Source of the DNA: a virus
Taxonomy: Duplodnaviria > Caudoviricetes
DNA length: 64,000 nt
Virus record (IMG/VR): IMGVR_UViG_3300010340_001122
Strand: one strand, 5' to 3'
Of the stretch, positions 4,556 to 42,319 are shown piece by piece. Made by a program: the position numbers and the translations under genes. Position 1 is the first letter of the stretch; every line of letters begins with the position of its first letter. The notes below the pieces were generated by a model that was not told where the DNA came from, did no database searches, and worked only from the letters and a program-made list of their open reading frames with translations.

Positions 4556-4732
4556 ATGGGTGAAGTTAGAAAAAAGTATAATTCTGATAAAATTTCAAAA
4601 AAGAAGTATAATTCTGATAAAACTTTTATTCAGATATCAAAAGACTTACATCAACAAGTTAAAGTATATTGTGATTTGAGTAACATATCTATTCGTGAAT
4701 TTTTAGAAAAAATAATTAAAGAAAGTTTATGA
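4556..4732 (+). CDS. Small ribbon-helix-helix-like DNA-binding protein (58 aa)
   Basis: Not in track. MGEVRKKYNSDKISKKKYNSDKTFIQISKDLHQQVKVYCDLSNISIREFLEKIIKESL; RHH-like beta-strand/helix/helix pattern; ATGA overlap with next gene. Confidence 0.55.
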   Translation: MGEVRKKYNSDKISKKKYNSDKTFIQISKDLHQQVKVYCDLSNISIREFLEKIIKESL

Positions 4733-5235
4733 TTGATAAATTTGATGGTCGGTATAATTTTCTCTCAAATTTCTACCCTGCTAAGATAGAACATCAGGGT
4801 ATTACTTACCCAACTTTGGAACACTACTACGTATCTATGAAGGTTAAAAACGATCAACAAATAGATGGTAAGTATATCACTATGATCGATTGTAGGGAAC
4901 TCATTGCCAAAATGCCTGATCCGGCAAAGGTTAAACAATTTGGTAAGATAATTAAAGTTAGAAAAGACTGGGATGATGTTAAATTGGATGTTATGTTATG
5001 GGGAATTCGTGAGAAATTTAAACATCAAGACTTAAAAGAAATGTTATTAGCGACTGATGATGAAGAATTGGTTGAAGGCAATTATTGGCACGATAATTTT
5101 TTTGGAGTATGTACTTGTGGTCCTTGTTACGGTCAGGGTCAAAATAATCTCGGTAAGATTTTAATGAAAGTTCGAATGGAATTGGGACAACAAAATGATA
5201 AGCCTTCACTAGAAGATATACTTTTTAAAAAATAA
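4729..5235 (+). CDS. NADAR (YbiA-like) family protein
   Basis: FLSNFY...YPTLEHYY...RKDWDDVKLDVM...KF...LLAT...LVEGNYWHDNFFG...GQNNLGKILMKVR. Confidence 0.9.
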   Translation: MIDKFDGRYNFLSNFYPAKIEHQGITYPTLEHYYVSMKVKNDQQIDGKYITMIDCRELIAKMPDPAKVKQFGKIIKVRKDWDDVKLDVMLWGIREKFKHQDLKEMLLATDDEELVEGNYWHDNFFGVCTCGPCYGQGQNNLGKILMKVRMELGQQNDKPSLEDILFKK

Positions 5236-5247
5236 ATAGAAAATAAT

Positions 5248-6195
5248 ATGTCAATTATAAGTTATTTTGGAGGCAAGAGTTCTTCAATATTTCAAGATTT
5301 AATTAATAAAAGAATTCCCAAAACAGGAATAAAAACCTATATAGAACCATTCTCAGGAGCTATGGGAACGTATATGGACGATGATTCTCTTAAATTTGAA
5401 CAAGTTGTCTATAATGATAAAAATAGACATCAGGTGAATCTATATAAGTGTTGTTCAGATCCTGAAAAGTTTATTACATATTTAGAAAATTTATCCAAAC
5501 CATTTAATATTCTTTATACAGAGTTAAAAACACCACTAGAAAAATGGGATTTTTATAAAGGTGTATATAGGGAATATATCAAGAATAGTTTTCTTGATGA
5601 TATGAATTTTGAAATAGGTAACTTTGAAAAGGCGGCTATATATGCGTTCTTGATCACATCTGCCCATAATTCTGTTTACCCTCGCGGCGCTGGATTTAAT
5701 GGGTATAAGAAAGATAAAGATCGTTTAAAATTAGAGGTTTTAATTAAAAAGTTAAAAAATAATACTTATACAAGTAAATTACACTCAATTACTGAATTTT
5801 ATAACATCGATTTTGAGGAATTAATTTTAAAATATGATTCAGATGATACTTATCTTTATTTAGATCCACCATACGCTCGATTTAATGAGTCAAAGGGTGA
5901 AGATGATGCCAAAAGATTATTTTGGTATGGTTCGGATGGTGATGGTGTATTTGGTCCAGCCTCACATAGAAGATTATTAGAATTAATAAAAACTACAAAA
6001 TGTCGATGGTCTCTTTCATATTACTATTTTCCATTATTAGAGGAACTTTTACCAAGAGATAAATATCGTTGGATTGAAAAGGAAGTATTTAGAAGCTCTG
6101 CTCAGGGTGGTAACAATGCGGATATTAAAAAGGAGCAATCTAAAGGTGTTGAGCTACTTATCATGAATTATGACGAAAACGGAATTAAATTTTAA
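5248..6195 (+). CDS. D12-class (Dam-like) DNA adenine methyltransferase
   Basis: SYFGGKS, YIEPFSGA, YND, YLDPPY and ELLIMNY motifs. Confidence 0.85.
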   Translation: MSIISYFGGKSSSIFQDLINKRIPKTGIKTYIEPFSGAMGTYMDDDSLKFEQVVYNDKNRHQVNLYKCCSDPEKFITYLENLSKPFNILYTELKTPLEKWDFYKGVYREYIKNSFLDDMNFEIGNFEKAAIYAFLITSAHNSVYPRGAGFNGYKKDKDRLKLEVLIKKLKNNTYTSKLHSITEFYNIDFEELILKYDSDDTYLYLDPPYARFNESKGEDDAKRLFWYGSDGDGVFGPASHRRLLELIKTTKCRWSLSYYYFPLLEELLPRDKYRWIEKEVFRSSAQGGNNADIKKEQSKGVELLIMNYDENGIKF

Positions 6196-6945
6196 ATGAA
6201 TATTGAAGAATTTTTTAAAAATGCTTTTAAAAAAGTAAATATTGATTTACCTTTTAAGCGATTAGAATCAGATATTTCAAACTATCAAAAATATAATTTG
6301 TATGTCAATTTACCACCAAAGGTGGTGGATTTCGAGGAAATGTATTATAACTTATTAAGAGAAAATATTGTTCGTGAGATTAATCAGTATGCTTTAAAAG
6401 TTATTATTGGTGATATAAAATCTAAGGGAAGTGTTAATTTTATTGACGTGATAGATATCAATGATAATACTAATTATAGCACAATTATCAGTATGTCAAG
6501 AAAAATTGTTAGTGAGATTAAAAATCTTAATTTACCTAATGTTATCACAAATGGTAGAATAGCTTCAGATTATCTTATGGATTCTCCAGGGTTTAATACA
6601 TATCCGATTAAAACTAGTTTAGATAGATTTAATACCTTTACAAAACATGGAAATCTTTTTGGCAGTATTGATGTTTATCTCGATTCATATATGAAATGGA
6701 ATGATGATTTCATTTTATCTTATGATGATGTCTATTATGATTTATCTGATATAAAAATCAATATTAAACAAGATCCTTCAATTACTCCAGTTCTTGAAGT
6801 TGAATTTATGATATATCATAATATTATTAATCCAAAGTTGACGTATATTGTAGAAAATGTAACTTCAACTGCCTATTCAAAATATAAATCTGAATTAAGA
6901 AATAAACGAATTGATAATATATTAGATGATGATAAAACACCTTAA
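6196..6945 (+). CDS. Truncated T4 gp23-like major-capsid-related protein
   Basis: ENIVREIN, VITNGRIAS and GNLFGSIDVYLDSY resemble gp23 TEIMLEINRE, FIIASRNV and GVLGGKYRVYIDQY (alignment from memory); only 249 aa. Confidence 0.5.
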   Translation: MNIEEFFKNAFKKVNIDLPFKRLESDISNYQKYNLYVNLPPKVVDFEEMYYNLLRENIVREINQYALKVIIGDIKSKGSVNFIDVIDINDNTNYSTIISMSRKIVSEIKNLNLPNVITNGRIASDYLMDSPGFNTYPIKTSLDRFNTFTKHGNLFGSIDVYLDSYMKWNDDFILSYDDVYYDLSDIKINIKQDPSITPVLEVEFMIYHNIINPKLTYIVENVTSTAYSKYKSELRNKRIDNILDDDKTP

Positions 6946-7303
6946 TCGAATTTATAAACTTGGATATGATATTGAGGTCGTTTGGAATAAACAGATTCAA
7001 ATAACATATGATTTCAATAGAATTTCAGGATTTGAAGAGTATGATCCAGTCTCTGTACTTATTTATGTACATGATTTCTGGAATGAATCTTTAAATTTTC
7101 AAAAGTGTTTAGAAGAAACTTGTGAGATATTTTATTCTTGGTATTCCGATAATCATAAGATGATATTAAAATATCTTGAGAATCCTCAAAAGAAATTCGA
7201 TCATTTCGCTTCAAGATCAAATATAGACAGTTTATCACTCGGTGATGTTAGTTCACAGGTGAATCGAGGAATGAGAATTGATGATATATTAGATGATTAT
7301 TGA
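6926..7303 (+). CDS. Hypothetical protein with C-terminal RxxRIxxIL tail
   Basis: 125-aa ORF ending RGMRIDDILDDY. Confidence 0.65.
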   Translation: MMIKHLNRIYKLGYDIEVVWNKQIQITYDFNRISGFEEYDPVSVLIYVHDFWNESLNFQKCLEETCEIFYSWYSDNHKMILKYLENPQKKFDHFASRSNIDSLSLGDVSSQVNRGMRIDDILDDY

Positions 7304-7566
7304 GCTTCATCAAGTGCGTCTTGAAGAACGTTTTGAAAAGCCATATATTGATCTGTATCTCCTTCATCATATATATCGGAGACTCCACTTTCAAAGTCTC
7401 TTATAGCATTTCTGAAATTATCGACTAATTTTCTATATTTTGAAGATTGTTTAAGTTCATCATATACATTATCATCGATAGTGGATTCATTTATTTTAGA
7501 TTCTTCTAATTCTTCTATAGCATCAATTTTGTCTTTAACCATATCTGGACTAAGATTCCAATCCAT
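7297..7566 (-). CDS. Hypothetical acidic protein
   Basis: 89-aa ORF with natural composition. Confidence 0.55.
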   Translation of the reverse strand: MDWNLSPDMVKDKIDAIEELEESKINESTIDDNVYDELKQSSKYRKLVDNFRNAIRDFESGVSDIYDEGDTDQYMAFQNVLQDALDEAQ

Positions 7567-7666
7567 TTTATGAGTTACTTTATTATACTTAATTCTTGGA
7601 TTTCCAATTAATTTTTGTCTTTCTGAATTAGGTTTACTATATATAAATATATTATATTTGTAAATT

Positions 7667-8125
7667 ATGAATCCTCACAAAAAATTAAGAGAGTTGGGTT
7701 TCAAGAAGACCAATTTTTATAAGCCAGGTAGTCATCCTGATACTTATGAATCTATGATGGTGCTTGATAATGAGGATACTAAATGGGAGTATAGAGATGG
7801 AAAAAGAGTTTCTGTTAAAGTTGAAAAAATACATCCTAAGTCTAGCTCATTTTGGATACTAAAGTATAGTGATAATTATATTTTGTGGTGTTTGGTTAAG
7901 AATCATCTTATAGATAAGATTTGGCTTGAGAATAAATCAGGTAAAAGTCTTGGAAATAGGAGAATACTATATTATGGTAGAAATATAGAGGATGAAAGAT
8001 TAAAACTTATATTTGATATCTCTAATCGTGATCATAATCCACTTGAAGGTAAGAATCAAATTATGAATATTTTACCTAAAGAGATTAAAAGAGATTTTTT
8101 ATTGGATCAACTATTTGGATTTTAA
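7667..8125 (+). CDS. Hypothetical protein
   Basis: 152-aa ORF starting 6 nt after TATATTTG (7653-7660). Confidence 0.7.
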   Translation: MNPHKKLRELGFKKTNFYKPGSHPDTYESMMVLDNEDTKWEYRDGKRVSVKVEKIHPKSSSFWILKYSDNYILWCLVKNHLIDKIWLENKSGKSLGNRRILYYGRNIEDERLKLIFDISNRDHNPLEGKNQIMNILPKEIKRDFLLDQLFGF

Positions 8126-8145
8126 TATATAAAACCATATATTTG
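8114..8145 (+). promoter_or_regulatory. Bacteroidota-type promoter for the release-factor transcript
   Basis: TTTG 8114-8117, 20-nt spacer, TATATTTG 8138-8145; same ctatttgg/tatatttgta contexts as the tmRNA promoter. Confidence 0.7.
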
Positions 8146-8237
8146 TATTATTATGAAACTATGACTACATAATTATTAGCGAAGTGAGTAAATTACTCAC
8201 AAACAATTTTATTGTCTAAAAATTAAAAAATAAAGTC

Positions 8238-8915
8238 ATGGAACAAATTATTATAGAAATAAGAGCCGCTGAGGGCGGTCAAGATTCAAAACTTCTTGTA
8301 GAAGATTTAAGAGATATTTATCTCAAAACAGCACGAGTTAATAACTTCGATTGTAAGGTTACTAACAGAGATGGATTTGCATCTATCTGACTGACTGGTA
8401 AGAAAGTTAAGACATTTTTTAAAAATGAAAGTGGACCACATCGATGGTTAAGAATTCCACCAACTGAAAAAAAAGGTAGGACACAGACTTCAATAATTAC
8501 GGTTGCTCTAATTGATCCAAGTGATAAATTAGATTTTAATTTCAATCGTAGTGAAGTTACTAAACAATATACGAGAAGTGGTGGCGCCGGTGGTCAGAAT
8601 GTTAATCGTAGATCCACTTGTGTTCAACTAACTCATTTACCAACAGGTATTCAAGTTAAGTGTCAAGATACAAGAGACCAATGTAAAAATGAGGAATTAG
8701 CTTGGATTCGTCTTGAAGATAAACTTAGAGTAATACATGATGCGACTCAGATCAAGACAGTTTATCAAAATCGTTTCGATCAAGTTGGTACAGGTTCAAG
8801 ATCGGACAAGAAGAGATCATATAGAATCAAAGAGAATTTGGTAGTTGATCATGAAACAGGTAAGACTTGTTCATTTACTGATTTCTTAAAGGGTAGAATT
8901 GATTTATTGTCCTAA
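8238..8915 (+). CDS. RF1-type peptide chain release factor lacking domain 1, with in-frame TGA at codon 51 (readthrough candidate)
   Basis: Missed by track. MEQIIIEIRAAEGGQDSK...GFASI*LTGK...ESGPHRWLRIPPTEKKGRTQTS...RSGGAGGQNVN...HLPTGI...RSDKKRSY...DH...GRIDLLS; PxT at 8457-8465, GGQ at 8589-8597, TGA at 8388-8390, same frame throughout. Confidence 0.9.
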
Positions 8916-9656
8916 TATTAGTTTAAACTCCTCTTCACTTTTAAAGCTTTTTTTGGAGTTATTTATCCTTTTAGTTATACAAAGGTTATCAAGTGATGAT
9001 ATTTCTTCTACTTGATAACCTTTTTTAAATCCTTCAAAGATAGAAATCTTGTGGTCTATTGTTGGATATTTCTCATCATTATAATTAAATTGAAAGTTTA
9101 GGCTTATATTTTCACCATCATAGTAATCAAGTCCATTCCATTCTTGAATTAATTTATTCTTATTTCTTTTCGTTAGATTATCAATGAGTTTTCTGTATTT
9201 GATATATACATCTTTTTCTTTCTCAGATATAAAAAGATTGTTACTTTCAAAGTATTCATTGAGAGACTTTGATATTTTATCTTTGATTTCTGGATTATTC
9301 TCATATAGTTTTAAAATAGAGTTTCTTATTTTTTCTCGAACTTCTGTCCTTTTTGAGGGGTTTTTATCACCAGTCTTTGAATCCGAGTATCTTTTTTTGG
9401 ATTCATCACTTCTTTTTTTCCCTTTACAGGATAATCCAATTCTATCTTTATGCTCTTTTGATAATTTTTTACCTTTGTGTGACTCGGACAGACTTTTTTT
9501 ATGATCATCTGAAAAAATTTGACCTTTTCTTATTTCCGATTGCTTTTTATATCCACATTTTCTACAAGATGATTTTTTATCATTTGCAAAATTTAATGAG
9601 TCTTTCGATTTATAAGATATTTCGATTGAACATAATGGACAATTTCTTTTATACAT
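8904..9656 (-). CDS. NUMOD3/HNH homing-endonuclease-like protein
   Basis: CPLC/CRKC, repeated SxxHKxxLSxxxKGK NUMOD3-like units, PTIDHKISI...NLCITKRINNSKK. Confidence 0.75.
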   Translation of the reverse strand: MYKRNCPLCSIEISYKSKDSLNFANDKKSSCRKCGYKKQSEIRKGQIFSDDHKKSLSESHKGKKLSKEHKDRIGLSCKGKKRSDESKKRYSDSKTGDKNPSKRTEVREKIRNSILKLYENNPEIKDKISKSLNEYFESNNLFISEKEKDVYIKYRKLIDNLTKRNKNKLIQEWNGLDYYDGENISLNFQFNYNDEKYPTIDHKISIFEGFKKGYQVEEISSLDNLCITKRINNSKKSFKSEEEFKLILGQ

Positions 9657-9718
9657 AAAAATGATTTACTTTTATATATTAAATATTTAAGGTCAAAAAG
9701 TAAATAAGGTTAAATATT

Positions 9719-10408
9719 TCATTTTTTACTTATGGTATTTATAATCTCTCTAACATTTTTAATAGTTTCTATTTTAAAATCAGTTAAATCGATATCTCTA
9801 ATTAAATTTCTAAATTTTCTATCAGTGTAACTCCAATCATTTGATGATATGATAATTATACCATCTTGAAGCTTTACAGTGGTGTTATTACTAAATTCAC
9901 TTTTTGCTGATGAATTTCTGCTTTTAATCTCTTTGAATATTTGCATTAATTTAGTGACGCTTGTATCTACTTCAGTTTCTAATAGTATGAATAGGTATAT
10001 TGATGGAGTAAATGATATTGTCCCGGCATTTATATGTAATAAACAATTATCATATCTTTCTGATATTTGATAAAGTTCTTTAAAAATTGTGAATATTTTT
10101 TTATCCTTTATAAGATTTCTCTGACCAAATCTATTTCCTAATTTTAATGTGTCTTTTAATTGATCTAACTTTATTTGAATACAAAAGCAATATTTATCGT
10201 CTTCATAAATTGGATTATTATGAAGAATACTTAAAACTTTATCACCAAGCTGTTCTTTATCTAATGCTTGCTTACTGAAATATCCTTTATGAACTTCATA
10301 ATCTATTAACTCATCAGTTAGATCAAGAGTTACATCTTTTAAATCTTGCTCATCATCTTCATGAGCTTCTCTTAGTAACTCTATAAATTTTAATATTTTA
10401 TTTTTCAT
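9719..10408 (-). CDS. Hypothetical protein
   Basis: Long ORF in minus-strand operon; N-terminus MKNKILKFIELLRE. Confidence 0.7.
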   Translation of the reverse strand: MKNKILKFIELLREAHEDDEQDLKDVTLDLTDELIDYEVHKGYFSKQALDKEQLGDKVLSILHNNPIYEDDKYCFCIQIKLDQLKDTLKLGNRFGQRNLIKDKKIFTIFKELYQISERYDNCLLHINAGTISFTPSIYLFILLETEVDTSVTKLMQIFKEIKSRNSSAKSEFSNNTTVKLQDGIIIISSNDWSYTDRKFRNLIRDIDLTDFKIETIKNVREIINTISKK

Positions 10409-11198
10409 AAACATATAATGTAAATTGTATTAATATTTGTTTATTTTCAGATGATTTATTCATGTCAAATATTTCATTGATATGATATATATCAGGTAAT
10501 TGATTAAGATTATTAATTAATTCTTTAAATTTATTTTTAATTTGGTATAATTCATCTATCATGTTTATTTCAAGTTTATATGATTTTTCTAAAGTTATAT
10601 AATATAATTTTTTAGAACCATTTGTATGCATTAAATTCAATTTACCATCTTTTGCAAAAGATCTACTAACAACAACATCATAACCTTGTTCTCTAAACTC
10701 TGAAAATAACGAATTGAATGAACGAGCTGATTTTTTATGATAAAATGATTTAGATTCTTGGCTATTATCGTCTAATTTAAGATATAGTTTTAAATATCCG
10801 GATCCTCTTTTAAGATCAAATAAGGAATAGTCTTCTATATTGTGTAGAGATTCCATTGCATAAGCATGTATTTTTCTATCATTATCATTATCATTATTCT
10901 TTTTAATATTTACTATAAAACATGGTGTTAGTCCAGATGATGCGTATGCTTCTGTTCTTTCTAAATTTAATTGACCAGGTGGTGTATTAATTGTTAAATC
11001 TTTATGTAACTCATGTTCAAAGTTTTTACCTTTTAGATAAAAATCGATCTCGATATTTACATCTGTTCCATCATGTAGTTCTGCAAATGATTCAAATATA
11101 TCATCTTCATTTAAAAACCAAATAGATTTTATAAATTCCTCATTTCTTGAATATTTTTTCACATATGAGCTTTCAAAAATATGTTTTAAGTTTTTCAT
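10398..11198 (-). CDS. Hypothetical protein
   Basis: 266-aa ORF; N-terminus MKNLKHIFES. Confidence 0.7.
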   Translation of the reverse strand: MKNLKHIFESSYVKKYSRNEEFIKSIWFLNEDDIFESFAELHDGTDVNIEIDFYLKGKNFEHELHKDLTINTPPGQLNLERTEAYASSGLTPCFIVNIKKNNDNDNDRKIHAYAMESLHNIEDYSLFDLKRGSGYLKLYLKLDDNSQESKSFYHKKSARSFNSLFSEFREQGYDVVVSRSFAKDGKLNLMHTNGSKKLYYITLEKSYKLEINMIDELYQIKNKFKELINNLNQLPDIYHINEIFDMNKSSENKQILIQFTLYVYEK

Positions 11199-11199
11199 T

Positions 11200-11889
11200 T
11201 TATTTAAGTTTTTTATCTAGTATTCTAGCTATATTAGATCCAATTGTAAAATGTATATTTCTAATTGTATCAGCTTCGACTGTTTCAACATCATCCATAA
11301 ATTTAAATTGATATCTATAAGTATCATTTTCTTCTTCATCACTATTTCTGTCAATTTTATAAATTGAGACATCAATTTTATAATTATTATTTACATCAAT
11401 TTCAAAATCAAATGTTACTTTATCACATGGTGTTGTTTTGAATTTTGGTTCATATTTAACATCAAAAATAGAATAGTCTGTAATCTTAGCTCTTCTCATA
11501 TAGTAATTTAAAAACATAGCAGGTGCTTCTATAAAATCGGAAAGAATTTGTATATCTTCCCCAAAATCATTCGATTCAATAATATCTTCTATTTTATTTT
11601 TCATATCAACAACATTATTAAAATCAACCTTATGATAATTACAATTTATATCAAATAAATAAATGAATGAATTATCTATTAGATTTCTTTTTTCTAAATC
11701 AGTTTTAAAAATGAATTTTGTGTGTATAATTAGAGTATCTTCAACTGATAATCCATGTATTGATATTACTAATTTATAGAATTCTTCATCACCAGACATT
11801 TCATACGTTGTTTCAACGGATTGAACTAAACCCTCTTCTTCCTCGAAGATATCTTTAAATGTTTGTTCGATTTCTGCTATTCTTATCAT
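11200..11889 (-). CDS. Hypothetical protein
   Basis: 229-aa ORF. Confidence 0.7.
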   Translation of the reverse strand: MIRIAEIEQTFKDIFEEEEGLVQSVETTYEMSGDEEFYKLVISIHGLSVEDTLIIHTKFIFKTDLEKRNLIDNSFIYLFDINCNYHKVDFNNVVDMKNKIEDIIESNDFGEDIQILSDFIEAPAMFLNYYMRRAKITDYSIFDVKYEPKFKTTPCDKVTFDFEIDVNNNYKIDVSIYKIDRNSDEEENDTYRYQFKFMDDVETVEADTIRNIHFTIGSNIARILDKKLK

Positions 11890-33181: not shown

Positions 33182-34027
33182 ATGAAAGTTTTAACTTATA
33201 GACAATATCAAATGGCTGAAGATTTATCAAATTTTATAGCAAATTCTCCTATTAATGAATCTGATAATAAAAATACCGAAATTGATGGTATTTTAAAAAA
33301 ATTATCACAGGATTTAAGATTTAATTACGGATTGGTATTTACATTTGGTGTTGGTGTTCGAGTTATGTATCCAATTGTCGAAGGATTAATTACAAATGGT
33401 GTTCTAAAAATAGAACCTACTATGGAAAATATTGTGCTTATTTCTATTGCTGCTCTCACAATAACATATTTAGAAGAATCAAAAAATAAAGTAGGGGATT
33501 CAGAAATTCCTTGCGATTGTAAAAGTAAATCTAAGGATTGTAAAAAATGTGGAGGATCAGGTATGATTAAAAGTGTTGTTTCTAAACAAGATGCTAGAAC
33601 AATTTTAGAGGAACTTAAACTCAGAGGAATTGGAAATGGTATAATTAAGAAAATGGTTGTGTGTTTTAAGTTTTTAGGAACTATTTTAAAAGATTTATTT
33701 AAAAATACCCCATATATTATCAATGGATTAATTGATATGTTAGCTTATACTAGTATTCTTATACCAGCTATGAATGGTATAAGTGCAATAGTTGGTAAAT
33801 ATGATTTAACTATAGATACTCTTATAGGAAATTCTTCAGCTATTTTATTAGGAATTTCAACATTTTTATCAAAATATGGTTTTGACTGGCTTGTTAAGAA
33901 ATTTAAAAAATTTGGATTTAATACAAAGGGATTAAATTTACCAACCGCTGTTAGAACTTATGATATAGTTGATTCCGACACTGACGAGGAAGTTTTCGGT
34001 AATAATAAATTAATAAAAGAACAATGA
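33182..34027 (+). CDS. Membrane protein with DnaJ-like Zn motif
   Basis: Several hydrophobic segments; CxC...CKKCGGSG. Confidence 0.65.
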   Translation: MKVLTYRQYQMAEDLSNFIANSPINESDNKNTEIDGILKKLSQDLRFNYGLVFTFGVGVRVMYPIVEGLITNGVLKIEPTMENIVLISIAALTITYLEESKNKVGDSEIPCDCKSKSKDCKKCGGSGMIKSVVSKQDARTILEELKLRGIGNGIIKKMVVCFKFLGTILKDLFKNTPYIINGLIDMLAYTSILIPAMNGISAIVGKYDLTIDTLIGNSSAILLGISTFLSKYGFDWLVKKFKKFGFNTKGLNLPTAVRTYDIVDSDTDEEVFGNNKLIKEQ

Positions 34028-38789: not shown

Positions 38790-40436
38790 ATGTTAAGAGA
38801 TCCACTCGTAGTAATGAGGTTGAATGTTAAGAAAAGAAATGGCCAAACAGAAGTATTTGAGGCCGAAAAAATTAATAAGGTTTTAATTTGGGCTACATCT
38901 GGTATAAGTGGAGTTTCCGCATCTGACGTGGCGATGAACTCCCGACTACAATTTTATCCAGGTATAAAAACCTCTGAAATACACAAAGTTTTGATTCAAT
39001 CAGCTGTTGATTTGATTTCAGATAAAAATCCAAACTATCAATATGTTGCTTCGAACTTATTGAATTATTTAGTTCGTAAAGAAGTTTTTGAAACGAAGAA
39101 AGAATTACCATCTCTTTTAGAATGTATCAACCGAAACATTAAAGTAGATTTATATGATTCATTGATATTGTCAAAATATAATAAAGAAGAAATTTCTAAA
39201 TGTGATTCATATATAAAACATGAACGAGATTATGATTTGACATATGCTGGTCTTCAACAATTGATTGATAAATATCTTGTTAAAGATAGAAGTACTGGTA
39301 AATCATATGAAACACCACAATTTTGCTTTATGATGATTGCGATGACTGTTTTTGCAGACTATGATAAATCTACAAGAATTGAATTTGTAAAAGAATTGTA
39401 TGATATGATTTCTGAACATAAGATTTCTCTACCAACACCGATTATGGCTGGTATTAGAACTCCTAATCGTCAATTTTCAAGTTGTACTTTAATTGAGGTT
39501 GGTGATTCACTAGACTCAATATTTCATGGTAATGTTGCAATTGGTCAGTATGTTGCTAAAAGAGCTGGTATTGGTATTAATGCTGGTCAAATTAGAGCAC
39601 TTGGTTCTAAAGTTCGTAACGGTGAAGTAGTTCACACAGGTGTTATTCCTTTCTTCAAAATGTTTCAATCAACTCTACACTCTTGTTCTCAAGGAGGTAT
39701 TCGTAAAGGATCAGCAACTCTTTATTTCCCTTGGTGGCATAAAGAGATTGAAGATGTTCTTGTATTGAAAAATAACAAAGGTACTGATGATAATCGTGTA
39801 AGACACATGGATTATGGTATTCAGTTTGAGAAAACATTCTATAATCGATTCATTTCAAACGGTGATATTGCACTTTTCTCCCCTTCTGATGTACCAGGTC
39901 TTTATGATGTTTTTGGACTTCCAGAATTTGAAGAAATGTATTTGAAATACGAATCTGATAAAAAGATTCCTAAGAAATTTGTTAAGGCGAGGGAGTTGAT
40001 GAATTCTTTTGCTCAAGAAAGAATAGGTACTGGACGTATGTATGTTATGAATATCGATAATGTTAATACAAATTCTCCTTTTATTGAAAGATTGAAAATG
40101 TCTAATCTTTGTTTAGATATAGAGACATCATTTGTAAATTCTGTTGAAATAGATGGTGTTTTATATGAGAAAATGCAGTTATCTGAACTAATTGAAATAT
40201 TCAATAGTGGTAAAAACATAAAAGTCCTATCTAAGAATTTATATAATGGTGAGATGGAATTCAAACAGGTTGAGAAGGCATGGATAACTAAAGAGGATGC
40301 TGATGTTATGGAAATAGAAGATGTTGATACAGGATTTAAAATAATTTGTACACCAGACCACTTAATTTTTACAAAAAATAGAGGATGGATTGAGGCACAA
40401 AATTTAGATGAGAATGATATTTTAGATTTAATTTAA
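38790..40436 (+). CDS. nrdA: Class Ia ribonucleotide reductase alpha, N-terminal part fused to split-intein N-fragment
   Basis: ATP cone (VKKRNG), YETPQ, PTP, QFSSC, SQGGIRKG, MSNL then intein C1; start may be 38814. Confidence 0.95.
   Translation: MLRDPLVVMRLNVKKRNGQTEVFEAEKINKVLIWATSGISGVSASDVAMNSRLQFYPGIKTSEIHKVLIQSAVDLISDKNPNYQYVASNLLNYLVRKEVFETKKELPSLLECINRNIKVDLYDSLILSKYNKEEISKCDSYIKHERDYDLTYAGLQQLIDKYLVKDRSTGKSYETPQFCFMMIAMTVFADYDKSTRIEFVKELYDMISEHKISLPTPIMAGIRTPNRQFSSCTLIEVGDSLDSIFHGNVAIGQYVAKRAGIGINAGQIRALGSKVRNGEVVHTGVIPFFKMFQSTLHSCSQGGIRKGSATLYFPWWHKEIEDVLVLKNNKGTDDNRVRHMDYGIQFEKTFYNRFISNGDIALFSPSDVPGLYDVFGLPEFEEMYLKYESDKKIPKKFVKARELMNSFAQERIGTGRMYVMNIDNVNTNSPFIERLKMSNLCLDIETSFVNSVEIDGVLYEKMQLSELIEIFNSGKNIKVLSKNLYNGEMEFKQVEKAWITKEDADVMEIEDVDTGFKIICTPDHLIFTKNRGWIEAQNLDENDILDLI
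40110..40433 (+). mobile_element. Split intein N-fragment (108 aa)
   Basis: Starts CLDIET directly after extein SNL; block B IICTPDHLIFTKNRGWIEAQNL; followed by stop. Confidence 0.9.
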
Positions 40437-40484
40437 AAGGTAGGTAGTATTATTTAATATATAATTGAAATTATACTACCGACT

Positions 40485-41240
40485 ATGAAAAAAGAATACA
40501 AAGTCTATAAGATAGAAAATATTATGAATAGTAAAGTTTATATAGGATATACATCATTAAGTATCAATGAAAGACTACATAAGCACTATACTAATGCTTT
40601 ATATGGTACAAAATCTAAATTATATGAATCTATAAGAAAAAATGGAATTTCAAATTTTAAACTCTCTCAATTATTTTCATCAGATTCTAAGGAAGAAGCA
40701 TTAAAAATGGAAATATTTTTTATTGAGAAATATGATTCATTCAAAAGTGGATATAACATGACTTTAGGAGGTGACGGTGGTGACTGTACATTGTATATGA
40801 ATCATGATCAACTTAAAGATTATAGGGAGAAATTAAGTTCATGTAATGGTGGATATAACAATAATACTTTTTCTGGATATACTGATGATGAAATAGTTGA
40901 CTTTGGAGTAAAGTGTTATCTTGATAATAACAATTGGGTACAATCACATTGGTTAGAAAATTATTGTTCTAAATTTAATATACCAAAATCTTATTCAAAA
41001 TTTAGATTTAATGGTAAAGGATGGCAAGGACTAAAGATTTTAATTTTAAATAAATTGAATGAAATGGGATATGATGTTAAGGATTTAAAATATAAAAAGA
41101 CTGATGAACACAAAAATAAATTAGCTTCTCTTTATAAGGGAAAGAAATGGTATCATAATGAAGAACTTAAAATAAATAAACAAATATTCAAAGAGGAAGT
41201 GGATAATAGTTGGCTTCCTGGAAGAAAAAAATATAATTAA
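40485..41240 (+). CDS. GIY-YIG homing endonuclease between the nrdA halves
   Basis: VYKIEN...VYIGYT...ER..H...E...I...GYNMTLGG. Confidence 0.9.
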   Translation: MKKEYKVYKIENIMNSKVYIGYTSLSINERLHKHYTNALYGTKSKLYESIRKNGISNFKLSQLFSSDSKEEALKMEIFFIEKYDSFKSGYNMTLGGDGGDCTLYMNHDQLKDYREKLSSCNGGYNNNTFSGYTDDEIVDFGVKCYLDNNNWVQSHWLENYCSKFNIPKSYSKFRFNGKGWQGLKILILNKLNEMGYDVKDLKYKKTDEHKNKLASLYKGKKWYHNEELKINKQIFKEEVDNSWLPGRKKYN

Positions 41241-41242
41241 AT

Positions 41243-42319
41243 ATGTTAAAAATAAAAAGAATATCTCAGAAGAAGAATGTAGGAGACTTAACTGTAAAAG
41301 ACAACCACAACTTTTATGCCAATAATATATTGGTTCATAACTGCGTAGAAATTGTTTTACCAACATCACCGATTGAAAATATCTATGATATTGATAATAA
41401 AAAAGAAACTGAACAATATTCAGATGCTGAAATTGCACTTTGTACATTAGCAGCATTTAACTTAGGGAATATTAAATCTTGGACTGAACTTCATAAAGTT
41501 GCCGAATATATTGTTAGAATACTAGAATATGTAATTGAAAATCAAGATTATCCAATTAATGCGGCTAAAAAGATGTTAAAGCGTCGTTCGGTTGGTGTTG
41601 GTGTTACAAATTTTGCATACTGGTTAGCTAAACAAGGAGTTAAATATTCTGATAAAGAAGCACTTTTCTATGTTGATGAGTTATTTGAAAATATTCAATA
41701 TTCTTTATTGAAAGCTTCAAATAAATTAGCACAAGAATTTGGAAAATGTGAATGGTATGATAAAACTACATATTCTCAGGGTATTTTACCAATTGATCGT
41801 TATAATAAAAATGTTGATGAATTAGTTAAAAGAGATTATTCATGTGATTGGGACACGTTAAGAAAAGATATTGAAGAATTTGGATTAAGGAATTCTGTAT
41901 TGACAGCAATTATGCCAGCTGAATCATCAGCAGTTGTTCAAAATGCAACCAATGGTATTGAGCCTATTCGTTCTCTTGTTATCACTAAGAAGTCTAAATC
42001 AGGACTTGTTAAACAAGTGGCACCAGAGTGTATTAAATTGAAAAATAAATATGAAATGGCATTTGAAATGCCGGATAATCGTGGATATACTAATATTTGT
42101 GCAGTAATTCAAAAATGGATTGACCAATCAATTTCAGCAAATCATTATTATCAATATTCTTCTGATGGTATTTCAATTGGTGGTGTTATTAAAGATGTAT
42201 TATACGCATATAAATATGGATTAAAAACACTTTATTATGCTAATACAGATGATAAAAAATCAGATGATTTAGATTCTATGGGAATGGATGGATGTGAATC
42301 TGGATCCTGCACATTGTGA
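41243..42319 (+). CDS. nrdA: Split-intein C-fragment (33 aa) fused to NrdA C-terminal part
   Basis: VGDLTVKDNHNFYANNILVHN then C(+1)VEI; ALCTL, MPAESS, NGIEP, DQSIS, KTLYY, C-terminal CESGSCTL. Confidence 0.95.
   Translation: MLKIKRISQKKNVGDLTVKDNHNFYANNILVHNCVEIVLPTSPIENIYDIDNKKETEQYSDAEIALCTLAAFNLGNIKSWTELHKVAEYIVRILEYVIENQDYPINAAKKMLKRRSVGVGVTNFAYWLAKQGVKYSDKEALFYVDELFENIQYSLLKASNKLAQEFGKCEWYDKTTYSQGILPIDRYNKNVDELVKRDYSCDWDTLRKDIEEFGLRNSVLTAIMPAESSAVVQNATNGIEPIRSLVITKKSKSGLVKQVAPECIKLKNKYEMAFEMPDNRGYTNICAVIQKWIDQSISANHYYQYSSDGISIGGVIKDVLYAYKYGLKTLYYANTDDKKSDDLDSMGMDGCESGSCTL

Follow-up and report, generated by a model that had tools for sequence, protein, structure and literature searches.

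A stop codon conserved within an RF1-type release factor gene of huge phages looks like a functional gate

We describe a phage gene for an RF1-type release factor whose reading frame is crossed by an in-frame TGA at codon 51, a stop codon gate that about 90% of 86 related phage genes keep in one form or another. Judged from sequence, the gate looks like a functional and conserved element and not like an error or the mark of a pseudogene. The gene lies in a 64,000-nucleotide stretch of DNA from a virus of the Caudoviricetes (IMG/VR record IMGVR_UViG_3300010340_001122), which at its full length is referred to below as the window. The proposal that we favour, and whose chances of being right we consider about even, is that programmed UGA readthrough in competition with RF2-type termination would set the output of the phage's sole class I release factor.

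A release factor gene with an in-frame TGA

The gene and its parts are as follows (window coordinates).

8238..8915, plus strand: RF1-type class I release factor gene without domain 1; 225 codons including the internal TGA, with ATG at 8238 and the terminal TAA at 8913-8915
8238..8387, plus strand: upstream segment (codons 1-50), in which the structure model places the first strand, the helix tipped by GGQDS (8274-8288) and a beta-hairpin of domain 2
8388..8390, plus strand: in-frame TGA gate, codon 51, in the context ATC TGA CTG and within predicted strand 47-54
8391..8912, plus strand: downstream segment, codons 52-225; PPT at 8457-8465 and GGQ at 8589-8597; no usable start codon of its own

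An earlier note on this DNA had described a 225-codon frame with RF1 motifs and a TGA at codon 51, and every one of its coordinates was confirmed. EIRAAEGG lies near the start of the translation and ESGPHR is also present, while PPT and GGQ occupy residues 74-76 and 118-120 of the readthrough protein. The Pfam domain PCRF (PF03462) matches residues 3-89, thereby spanning the stop, with 62.5 bits, and RF-1 (PF00472) matches residues 98-205 with 93 bits. The +1 frame is closed by TGA at 8392-8394 and the -1 frame by TAA at 8399-8401; since both close within 1-4 codons, the full protein can be made only via in-frame readthrough. Frameshifting at the window's gate is thereby ruled out, in keeping with the view taken in the note that this is not a +1 frameshift of the RF2 kind. 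Beyond the gate the first ATG, GTG or TTG is 149 codons on, and the list of open reading frames holds none of at least 40 amino acids that begins with one of these codons past the gate in the gate frame. Termination at the gate would release a fragment of 50 residues.

Two elements precede the gene.

8138..8145, plus strand: TATATTTG, a match to the Bacteroidetes -7 box TAnnTTTG that the alignment shows to be conserved in L007, L008 and L011
8153..8200, plus strand: leader with the mini-ORF ATG AAA CTA TGA (8153-8164), an in-frame TAG (8177-8179) and a 7-bp hairpin (8184-8200; z -2.5)

We take TAnnTTTG, as in Bacteroides promoters, to be the -7 promoter box of Bacteroidetes, and the element at 8138-8145 is the probable promoter of the release factor gene. 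The TGA-to-TAG stretch of the leader is kept in L007, in L008 and in L001 (LR756502). No motif resembling a Shine-Dalgarno (SD) sequence was seen before the ATG at 8238, and both this and the putative -7 box fit a Bacteroidetes host.

An RF1-like protein without domain 1

Among the NCBIfam models the best match is prfA (NF001859) with 181 bits (181.1), covering profile positions 105-333 of 347, followed by prfB with 120 and release_prfH with 64 bits; all three scores fall under their equivalog cut-offs, that of prfA being 400, and TIGR00019 likewise gives 177.4 against a cut-off of 423. Because the best match is to prfA and begins at profile position 105, which corresponds to residue 107 of Thermus thermophilus RF1, the protein is, on its sequence, RF1-like in domains 2-4 and devoid of domain 1 (about 100 residues). 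The upstream ORF at 7667-8125 was considered as a separately encoded domain 1 and set aside; it has no Pfam match. An AlphaFold2 model built from 32 homologs reached a pLDDT of 89.8 and superimposes best on ribosome-bound T. thermophilus RF1 (TM 0.88), with RF2 at about 0.83-0.85 and PrfH (9mor_A) at 0.65.

The absence of domain 1 had earlier been likened to that of the rescue factor PrfH (RF-H), which is paired with RtcB. The absence itself stands, and both proteins keep GGQ, but the likeness ends there: the window protein retains the PxT loop, scores 63.8 bits against a release_prfH cut-off of 166.65 while reaching 181 with prfA, and resembles RF1 in sequence as well as in predicted fold. 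No RtcB was detected by Pfam among the ten ORFs scanned at 4729-11889, which include a NADAR protein, a D12 methyltransferase and a NUMOD3 protein, the rest being without assignment.

The tripeptide PPT aligns with PVT of T. thermophilus RF1; in the 32 homologs P75 and T76 are invariant and P74 is nearly so. In RF1 structures the threonine of PxT selects A at position 2 of the stop codon, and Gln181, His193 and Thr194 of the T. thermophilus protein help to read the third base, according to RF1-ribosome structures. The alignment places Leu, Gln and Thr of the window protein at these three sites, and the relatives vary there too, with Q, V, I, L or N at the Gln181 site and H or Q at the His193 site. 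The codon range of the window protein is consequently uncertain, and with the Gln181 and His193 sites altered the statement in the earlier note that a PxT factor reads UAA and UAG is less safe than it was made to appear.

The gate is conserved among relatives

A scan of IMG/VR gave 449 relatives, of which 80 were taken; the loci, which come from huge-phage contigs, total 86 and are distributed as follows.

Single frame, one internal stop: 35 loci
Single frame, two internal stops: 27 loci (27 of the 70 single-frame homologs)
Single frame, no internal stop: 8 loci, all at 41% identity or less
Two frames, clear +1 site: 14 loci
Two frames, ambiguous: 2 loci (L054, L067)

One or two internal stops are thus found in 62 of the 86, nearly all of them TGA and 46 at the window's column. 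The +1 sites of the 14 two-frame relatives read CTT-TAG-C in nine, CTT-TGA-C in four and CTT-TAA-C in one, and a GGAGG-like element is clear upstream of three of the four CTT-TGA-C sites.

In an alignment of 84 genes (the window gene and 83 homologs) the gates occupy window codons 37, 38, 39, 43, 47 and 50-52, the lone exception being a TAA at codon 182 in L057. At the window's own column 42 homologs have TGA and 4 have TAG, which bears out the conservation that the earlier note had proposed to look for, and 7 more carry CTT-TAG-C one codon further on. In the structure model the gate positions map to the predicted beta-hairpin of domain 2 (strands 38-44 and 47-54). Four huge-phage homologs all contain in-frame TGAs, three of them at the window's column; in three of the four a TGA stands at one of two nearby columns, and two genes carry both. 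Ungated homologs have S, R, K, E or Q at the gate column, which indicates that the site tolerates many residues. In each of five relatives the genome holds exactly one gene with an RF-1 domain, and this is always the gated one.

The homolog at L006:3001-3660 (LR745208, 57% G+C) reads GGAGGGGT, with CTT TGA C at codon 37, and the PxT loop is missing (HRVQRTSNGRIHSS); from its sequence this member is gated by frameshifting and no longer has the tripeptide. Additional release-factor-like fragments lie a few kilobases from the main gated gene in L036 (2954-3148 and 7697-8017) and in L034 (2954-3148), and these may be remnants of paralogs.

Selection and stop codon context

Compared with L007, L008 and L010, the first of which is 88% identical to the window gene, dN/dS is 0.03-0.21 before the gate and 0.11-0.15 after it. 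Over all pairs the values are 0.03-0.29 upstream and 0.09-0.15 downstream, with dS between 0.26 and 2. Purifying selection on both flanks had been put forward as a check on the gate, and dN/dS indeed lies well under 1 on either side.

Termination is weak at UGA-C and UGA-A, and near-cognate tRNA-Trp reads UGA. The earlier description of the gate as a leaky UGA-C context agrees with the family as a whole, in which C or A follows 68 of 71 gate TGAs (C 34, A 34, G 3, T 0; 61 distinct genes). Ordinary terminal TGAs in the same DNA are followed by T in 54, A in 46, C in 38 and G in 22 cases (n=160; Fisher 1e-10 against the gates), and as the sequences counted for context are related to one another, the P values make them seem more independent than they are. 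Where leucine follows the gate its codon is CTN in 34 of 34 cases, compared with 51% of the leucine codons elsewhere in the same genes; in the window gene it is CTG, which makes up 1.4% of the window's leucine codons. A search for a stimulatory RNA structure in the 91 nt downstream of the gate found none (z 0.32).

TGA is an ordinary stop codon elsewhere

Outside the release factor gene TGA behaves as a true stop, as the earlier note maintained. Among the 75 long frames (at least 100 amino acids) of the window 58 end in TAA, 15 in TGA and 2 in TAG; in TGA-gated relatives TGA ends 22% of the flanking frames of at least 120 amino acids. The C-terminal piece of the ribonucleotide reductase (nrdA) follows the Pfam barrel profile to position 522 of 523 and its ORF then ends in CTL-TGA, and an ATGA overlap is found at 34024. 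Internal TGA is avoided by ordinary genes, and many TGA-ended genes have a second stop within 1-18 codons.

We screened for split genes with coding-like flanks of at least 45 codons, excluding those with a restart in the next 25 codons or with a longer ORF in another frame. The only hit in the window was 8388, and the only one in the complete 642-kb genome LR756502 was 107771, the homologous gate. In 400 kb of LR756501 the screen found no split gene, its double-gated release factor gene being likewise invisible on account of a short flank; a variant with other thresholds returned nothing else and also missed the release factor gene of LR756502, so that the sensitivity of the approach is limited. 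Genome-wide recoding of TGA or TAG was rejected, as the refined screen leaves the release factor gene alone in the window and in LR756502. Although TAG ends just 2 of the 75 long frames, the window showed no TAG-split gene.

At 24-30% G+C, the window is packed with coding frames in the standard code, and its 64 kb contain no tRNA gene. The nearest public genomes are the uncultured phages LR756502, LR756501, LR745206 and LR756504 of 634-735 kb, which belong to the huge phages of PMC7162821; that paper predicts a Bacteroidetes host for phages larger than 634 kb, the nearest complete genomes among them.

Two further features of the window may be recorded here. A convergent ORF of 250 amino acids on the minus strand (8904-9656) carries a NUMOD3 motif, is homing-endonuclease-like and overlaps the last 12 bases of the release factor gene. 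The gene for the large subunit of ribonucleotide reductase (38790-42319) is fractured. ORF 38790-40436 comprises an ATP-cone, the all-alpha domain, the first 215 barrel positions and the N-part of an intein, ORF 41243-42319 opens with the C-part of an intein and continues with barrel positions 204-522, and ORF 40485-41240, to which no identity was assigned, lies between the two pieces; together they resemble a 'fractured gene' of the split-intein type that an ORF interrupts.

tRNAs of the relatives

tRNA genes were called with ARAGORN at default settings, in the whole genome for LR756502 and in the tRNA regions for the other five sets.

LR756502 (whole genome): 46 tRNAs; UCA none; CUA none
LR745206 (tRNA regions): 58 tRNAs; UCA none; CUA none
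LR756504 (tRNA regions): 38 tRNAs; UCA none; CUA none
LR756501 (tRNA regions): 59 tRNAs; UCA none; CUA two (L200:286-359 and 364-439)
G003, 482 kb (tRNA regions): 54 tRNAs; UCA none; CUA two (L184, L185)
G002, 306 kb (tRNA regions): 37 tRNAs; UCA one; CUA one (suppressors at L175:3807-3880 and L177:1967-2042)

The opal suppressor tRNA that the earlier note had suggested as a key to the gate does not hold as a general one: five of the six sets are without a UCA anticodon, though such a suppressor may still play a part in individual phages. Relaxed thresholds gained no UCA tRNA. The contig of L007, the closest relative, which CheckV rates as only 24% complete, has 28 tRNAs and no suppressor among them. 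Default settings yielded a tRNA-Trp(CCA) in four of the six sets; that of LR756502 appeared only when the threshold was relaxed.

Well-formed amber suppressors (CUA) are present in three phages with a double-TGA-gated release factor gene (LR756501, G003 and G002), yet the 400 kb of LR756501 examined showed no gene split by TAG. Genes resembling tRNA-Glu with a 6-nt anticodon loop TTTTCA occur at L121:602-675 (LR756502) and at L133 c5123-5198, L138 c4361-4436 and other sites in LR756504; they are conserved between these two genomes, with several copies in LR756504, and absent in LR745206. They were considered as hidden opal suppressors and discarded on the grounds that the loop cannot place UCA at positions 34-36 and that LR745206 lacks them. 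Anticodon loops of 8 nt are found in L135 c646-721 (LR756504) and L128:865-938 (LR745206), for which ARAGORN gives the four-base anticodons TCTA and GTAG; on this basis they are possible quadruplet or frameshift decoders.

How the gate may work

We propose that a ribosome arriving at codon 51 would meet one of two fates. Either an RF2-type factor would terminate and leave the 50-residue fragment, or a near-cognate tRNA, most likely tRNA-Trp(CCA), would read UGA-C and carry the ribosome on through the PPT and GGQ parts. The output would thus be low and should rise when UGA termination weakens in the infected cell. We infer which tRNA decodes the gate, that host RF2 competes with it, and that the output responds to termination capacity.

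Some observations weigh against this proposal. With basal readthrough the double gates would let very little product through, which hints at a state in which UGA is decoded efficiently; the relative G002 does possess a UCA tRNA; and a stimulatory RNA structure is lacking after the gate. Sensing of RF2 in particular is not singled out over other readings, since the type of gate codon shows no link to the decoding residues: among genes with the nearly identical motif set GGTDA / Q / PPT / VHT, 11 have a double TGA gate and 3 have CTT-TAG-C. In a quick IQ-TREE tree the CTT-TAG-C clade is nested inside the TGA+TGA clade and the gate type changes at least 10 times. There is no clear link between the gate codon and the stop codon usage of the phage either, and SD-like motifs are scarcer near TGA-readthrough and CTT-TAG-C genes (7-11%) than near CTT-TGA-C genes (26%), a difference confounded by G+C content. 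What the earlier note claimed for the gate therefore divides: control of the full-length factor is upheld by a conserved gate with flanks under selection and a leaky context, and sensing of host RF2 is weakened because near relatives whose decoding motifs do not differ are gated by UAG, by UAA or by +1 sites, which suggests a principle wider than UGA and RF2. We rank cross-regulation by host RF2 ahead of a self-limiting loop, and the latter ahead of a fixed throttle, as readings of what the gate senses. More tentatively, the gated family might consist of huge-phage termination factors of self-limiting synthesis and altered codon range (all three stops, or UAA only) that replace or override host termination, the gate serving as a feedback sensor of termination capacity.

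The self-limiting loop, an analogue of prfB, would have the phage factor terminate at its own gate, whether UGA, UAG or UAA, with a codon range wider than PxT suggests. The near-identical decoding motifs behind double TGA gates and CTT-TAG-C sites speak for it, as do the nesting of the two clades, the replacement of Gln181 by Leu and of His193 by Gln, and the presence in some relatives of SPT, the RF1/RF2 hybrid tripeptide; yet PPT, with its threonine selective for A at position 2, is invariant in most members, and a range confined to UAA or the unchanged range of RF1 would explain the residue changes equally well, so that we think the loop unlikely. We regard with similar doubt the idea that the gate merely holds a potentially toxic factor at a constant small fraction of initiations and senses nothing, in which case any stop codon or slip site would do equally well. 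That each of the three stop codons is found as a gate, that recoding takes two modes, and that the presence of a gate is kept through at least ten changes of type, would suit such a throttle, and overproduction of RF2, and less so of RF1, harms Bacillus subtilis (PMC12421855). Against it, a weak promoter or a weak start would be simpler means, every known stop-dependent recoding site responds to the level of a release factor, and double gates would give an extremely low fixed output. Less probable again is a timer in which the phage would produce a UGA-decoding tRNA at a certain stage of infection and so open the gate, after the manner of the code-change modules of stop-recoded phages. Suppressor tRNAs in modules with release factors are known (Borges et al., 10.1101/2021.08.26.457843), the window's genome is incomplete, double gates are common, the tRNA complement of these phages runs to 38-60 and includes odd anticodon loops, and the UCA tRNA of G002 accompanies a double TGA gate. 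Such a tRNA is nevertheless absent from LR756502, LR745206, LR756504, LR756501 and G003, the long-flank screen of the 642 kb of LR756502 and 400 kb of LR756501 reveals no other TGA-split gene and thus no regulon, and the release factor gene of the published modules is in the standard code (Borges et al.).

It is very improbable that the true host reads UGA as sense (code 4 or 25), in which case the gate would stand open there and perhaps act as a switch for host type. The avoidance of internal TGA and the second stops within 1-18 codons do match the pattern of code-compatible phages (PMC10746230). Relatives exchange the TGA gate for TAG, for CTT-TAG-C or for CTT-TGA-C with an SD-like stimulator, however, all of which need a slow stop; the bias towards C or A after the gate would be purposeless if UGA were sense; and Bacteroidetes are the predicted hosts of the nearest complete genomes (PMC7162821). 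Least credible of all is that the codon marks a pseudogene or an assembly error or encodes selenocysteine. A single in-frame stop does resemble a nonsense mutation or a base-call error, but the TGA recurs in the same column of 42 homologs from separate assemblies and dN/dS is far under 1 on both sides. For selenocysteine the hairpin after the stop is wanting, and no tRNA-Sec was found apart from the UCA tRNA of G002; gates at several columns, with TAG possible, count against this group of readings as well.

Relation to known recoding systems

To our knowledge, the +1 frameshift of RF2 has until now been the sole example of recoding within a release factor gene. With prfB, where an SD-like element and CUU UGA C direct the shift, the window gene shares the principle of a release factor gene stopped early in which recoding competes with termination, and the slip site CTT-stop-C recurs in 14 of its relatives, in four of them with TGA. 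The window gene itself differs in relying on in-frame readthrough of ATC TGA CTG with the +1 frame closed, in encoding an RF1-type factor and in having its gate in domain 2, not domain 1. Relatives also place TAG at the slip site; a survey of more than 12,000 bacterial genomes in 2025 found no TAG in 8,164 prfB motifs and no programmed frameshift in prfA (PMC12421855).

Huge phages have RF1 and RF2 among their translation genes (PMC7162821). Stop-recoded phages possess code-change modules whose release factor gene keeps to the standard code, while the recoded stop stands in many of their late genes (Borges et al., 10.1101/2021.08.26.457843). A class I release factor of their own among many translation genes is common to the latter and to the window; the window differs in that the release factor gene alone carries the stop and TGA is otherwise ordinary. 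The passages of these two papers that our searches brought up make no mention of an internal stop in release factor genes, and our full-text literature searches found no description of a stop-gated release factor gene in a phage.

Programmed UGA readthrough in bacteria and phages, of which the A1 protein of Q-beta is an example, resembles the window gene in having UGA followed by C or A, functional sequence beyond the stop and no need of a downstream structure. Readthrough of the Q-beta type extends a protein that already works, whereas the stop at codon 51 would leave no functional product without readthrough, and here the gated gene is itself for a termination factor.

The genes described here make up a family of RF1-type phage genes gated by stop codons, with two recoding modes and all three stops, and thereby offer readthrough and frameshift cassettes in a ready-made natural series for comparison in reporters. 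They raise the question of what role a release factor without domain 1 has in a huge phage, and whether a phage might measure the termination capacity of its host. Were the family indeed self-limiting, it would be the first counterpart of the prfB loop in the RF1 lineage and the first such loop to operate on readthrough.

The gate also has consequences for annotation, since gene callers trim the gene to a fragment of 155 residues or, on short contigs, use code 4. Public proteins (P0001-P0018, P0029 and P0043) include entries of 225 amino acids with W at the gate, which come from contigs of 0.9-4 kb and probably reflect the gene caller's choice of code 4; contigs of up to 145 kb yield 155-residue fragments that begin with (M/L)RIPPTE.
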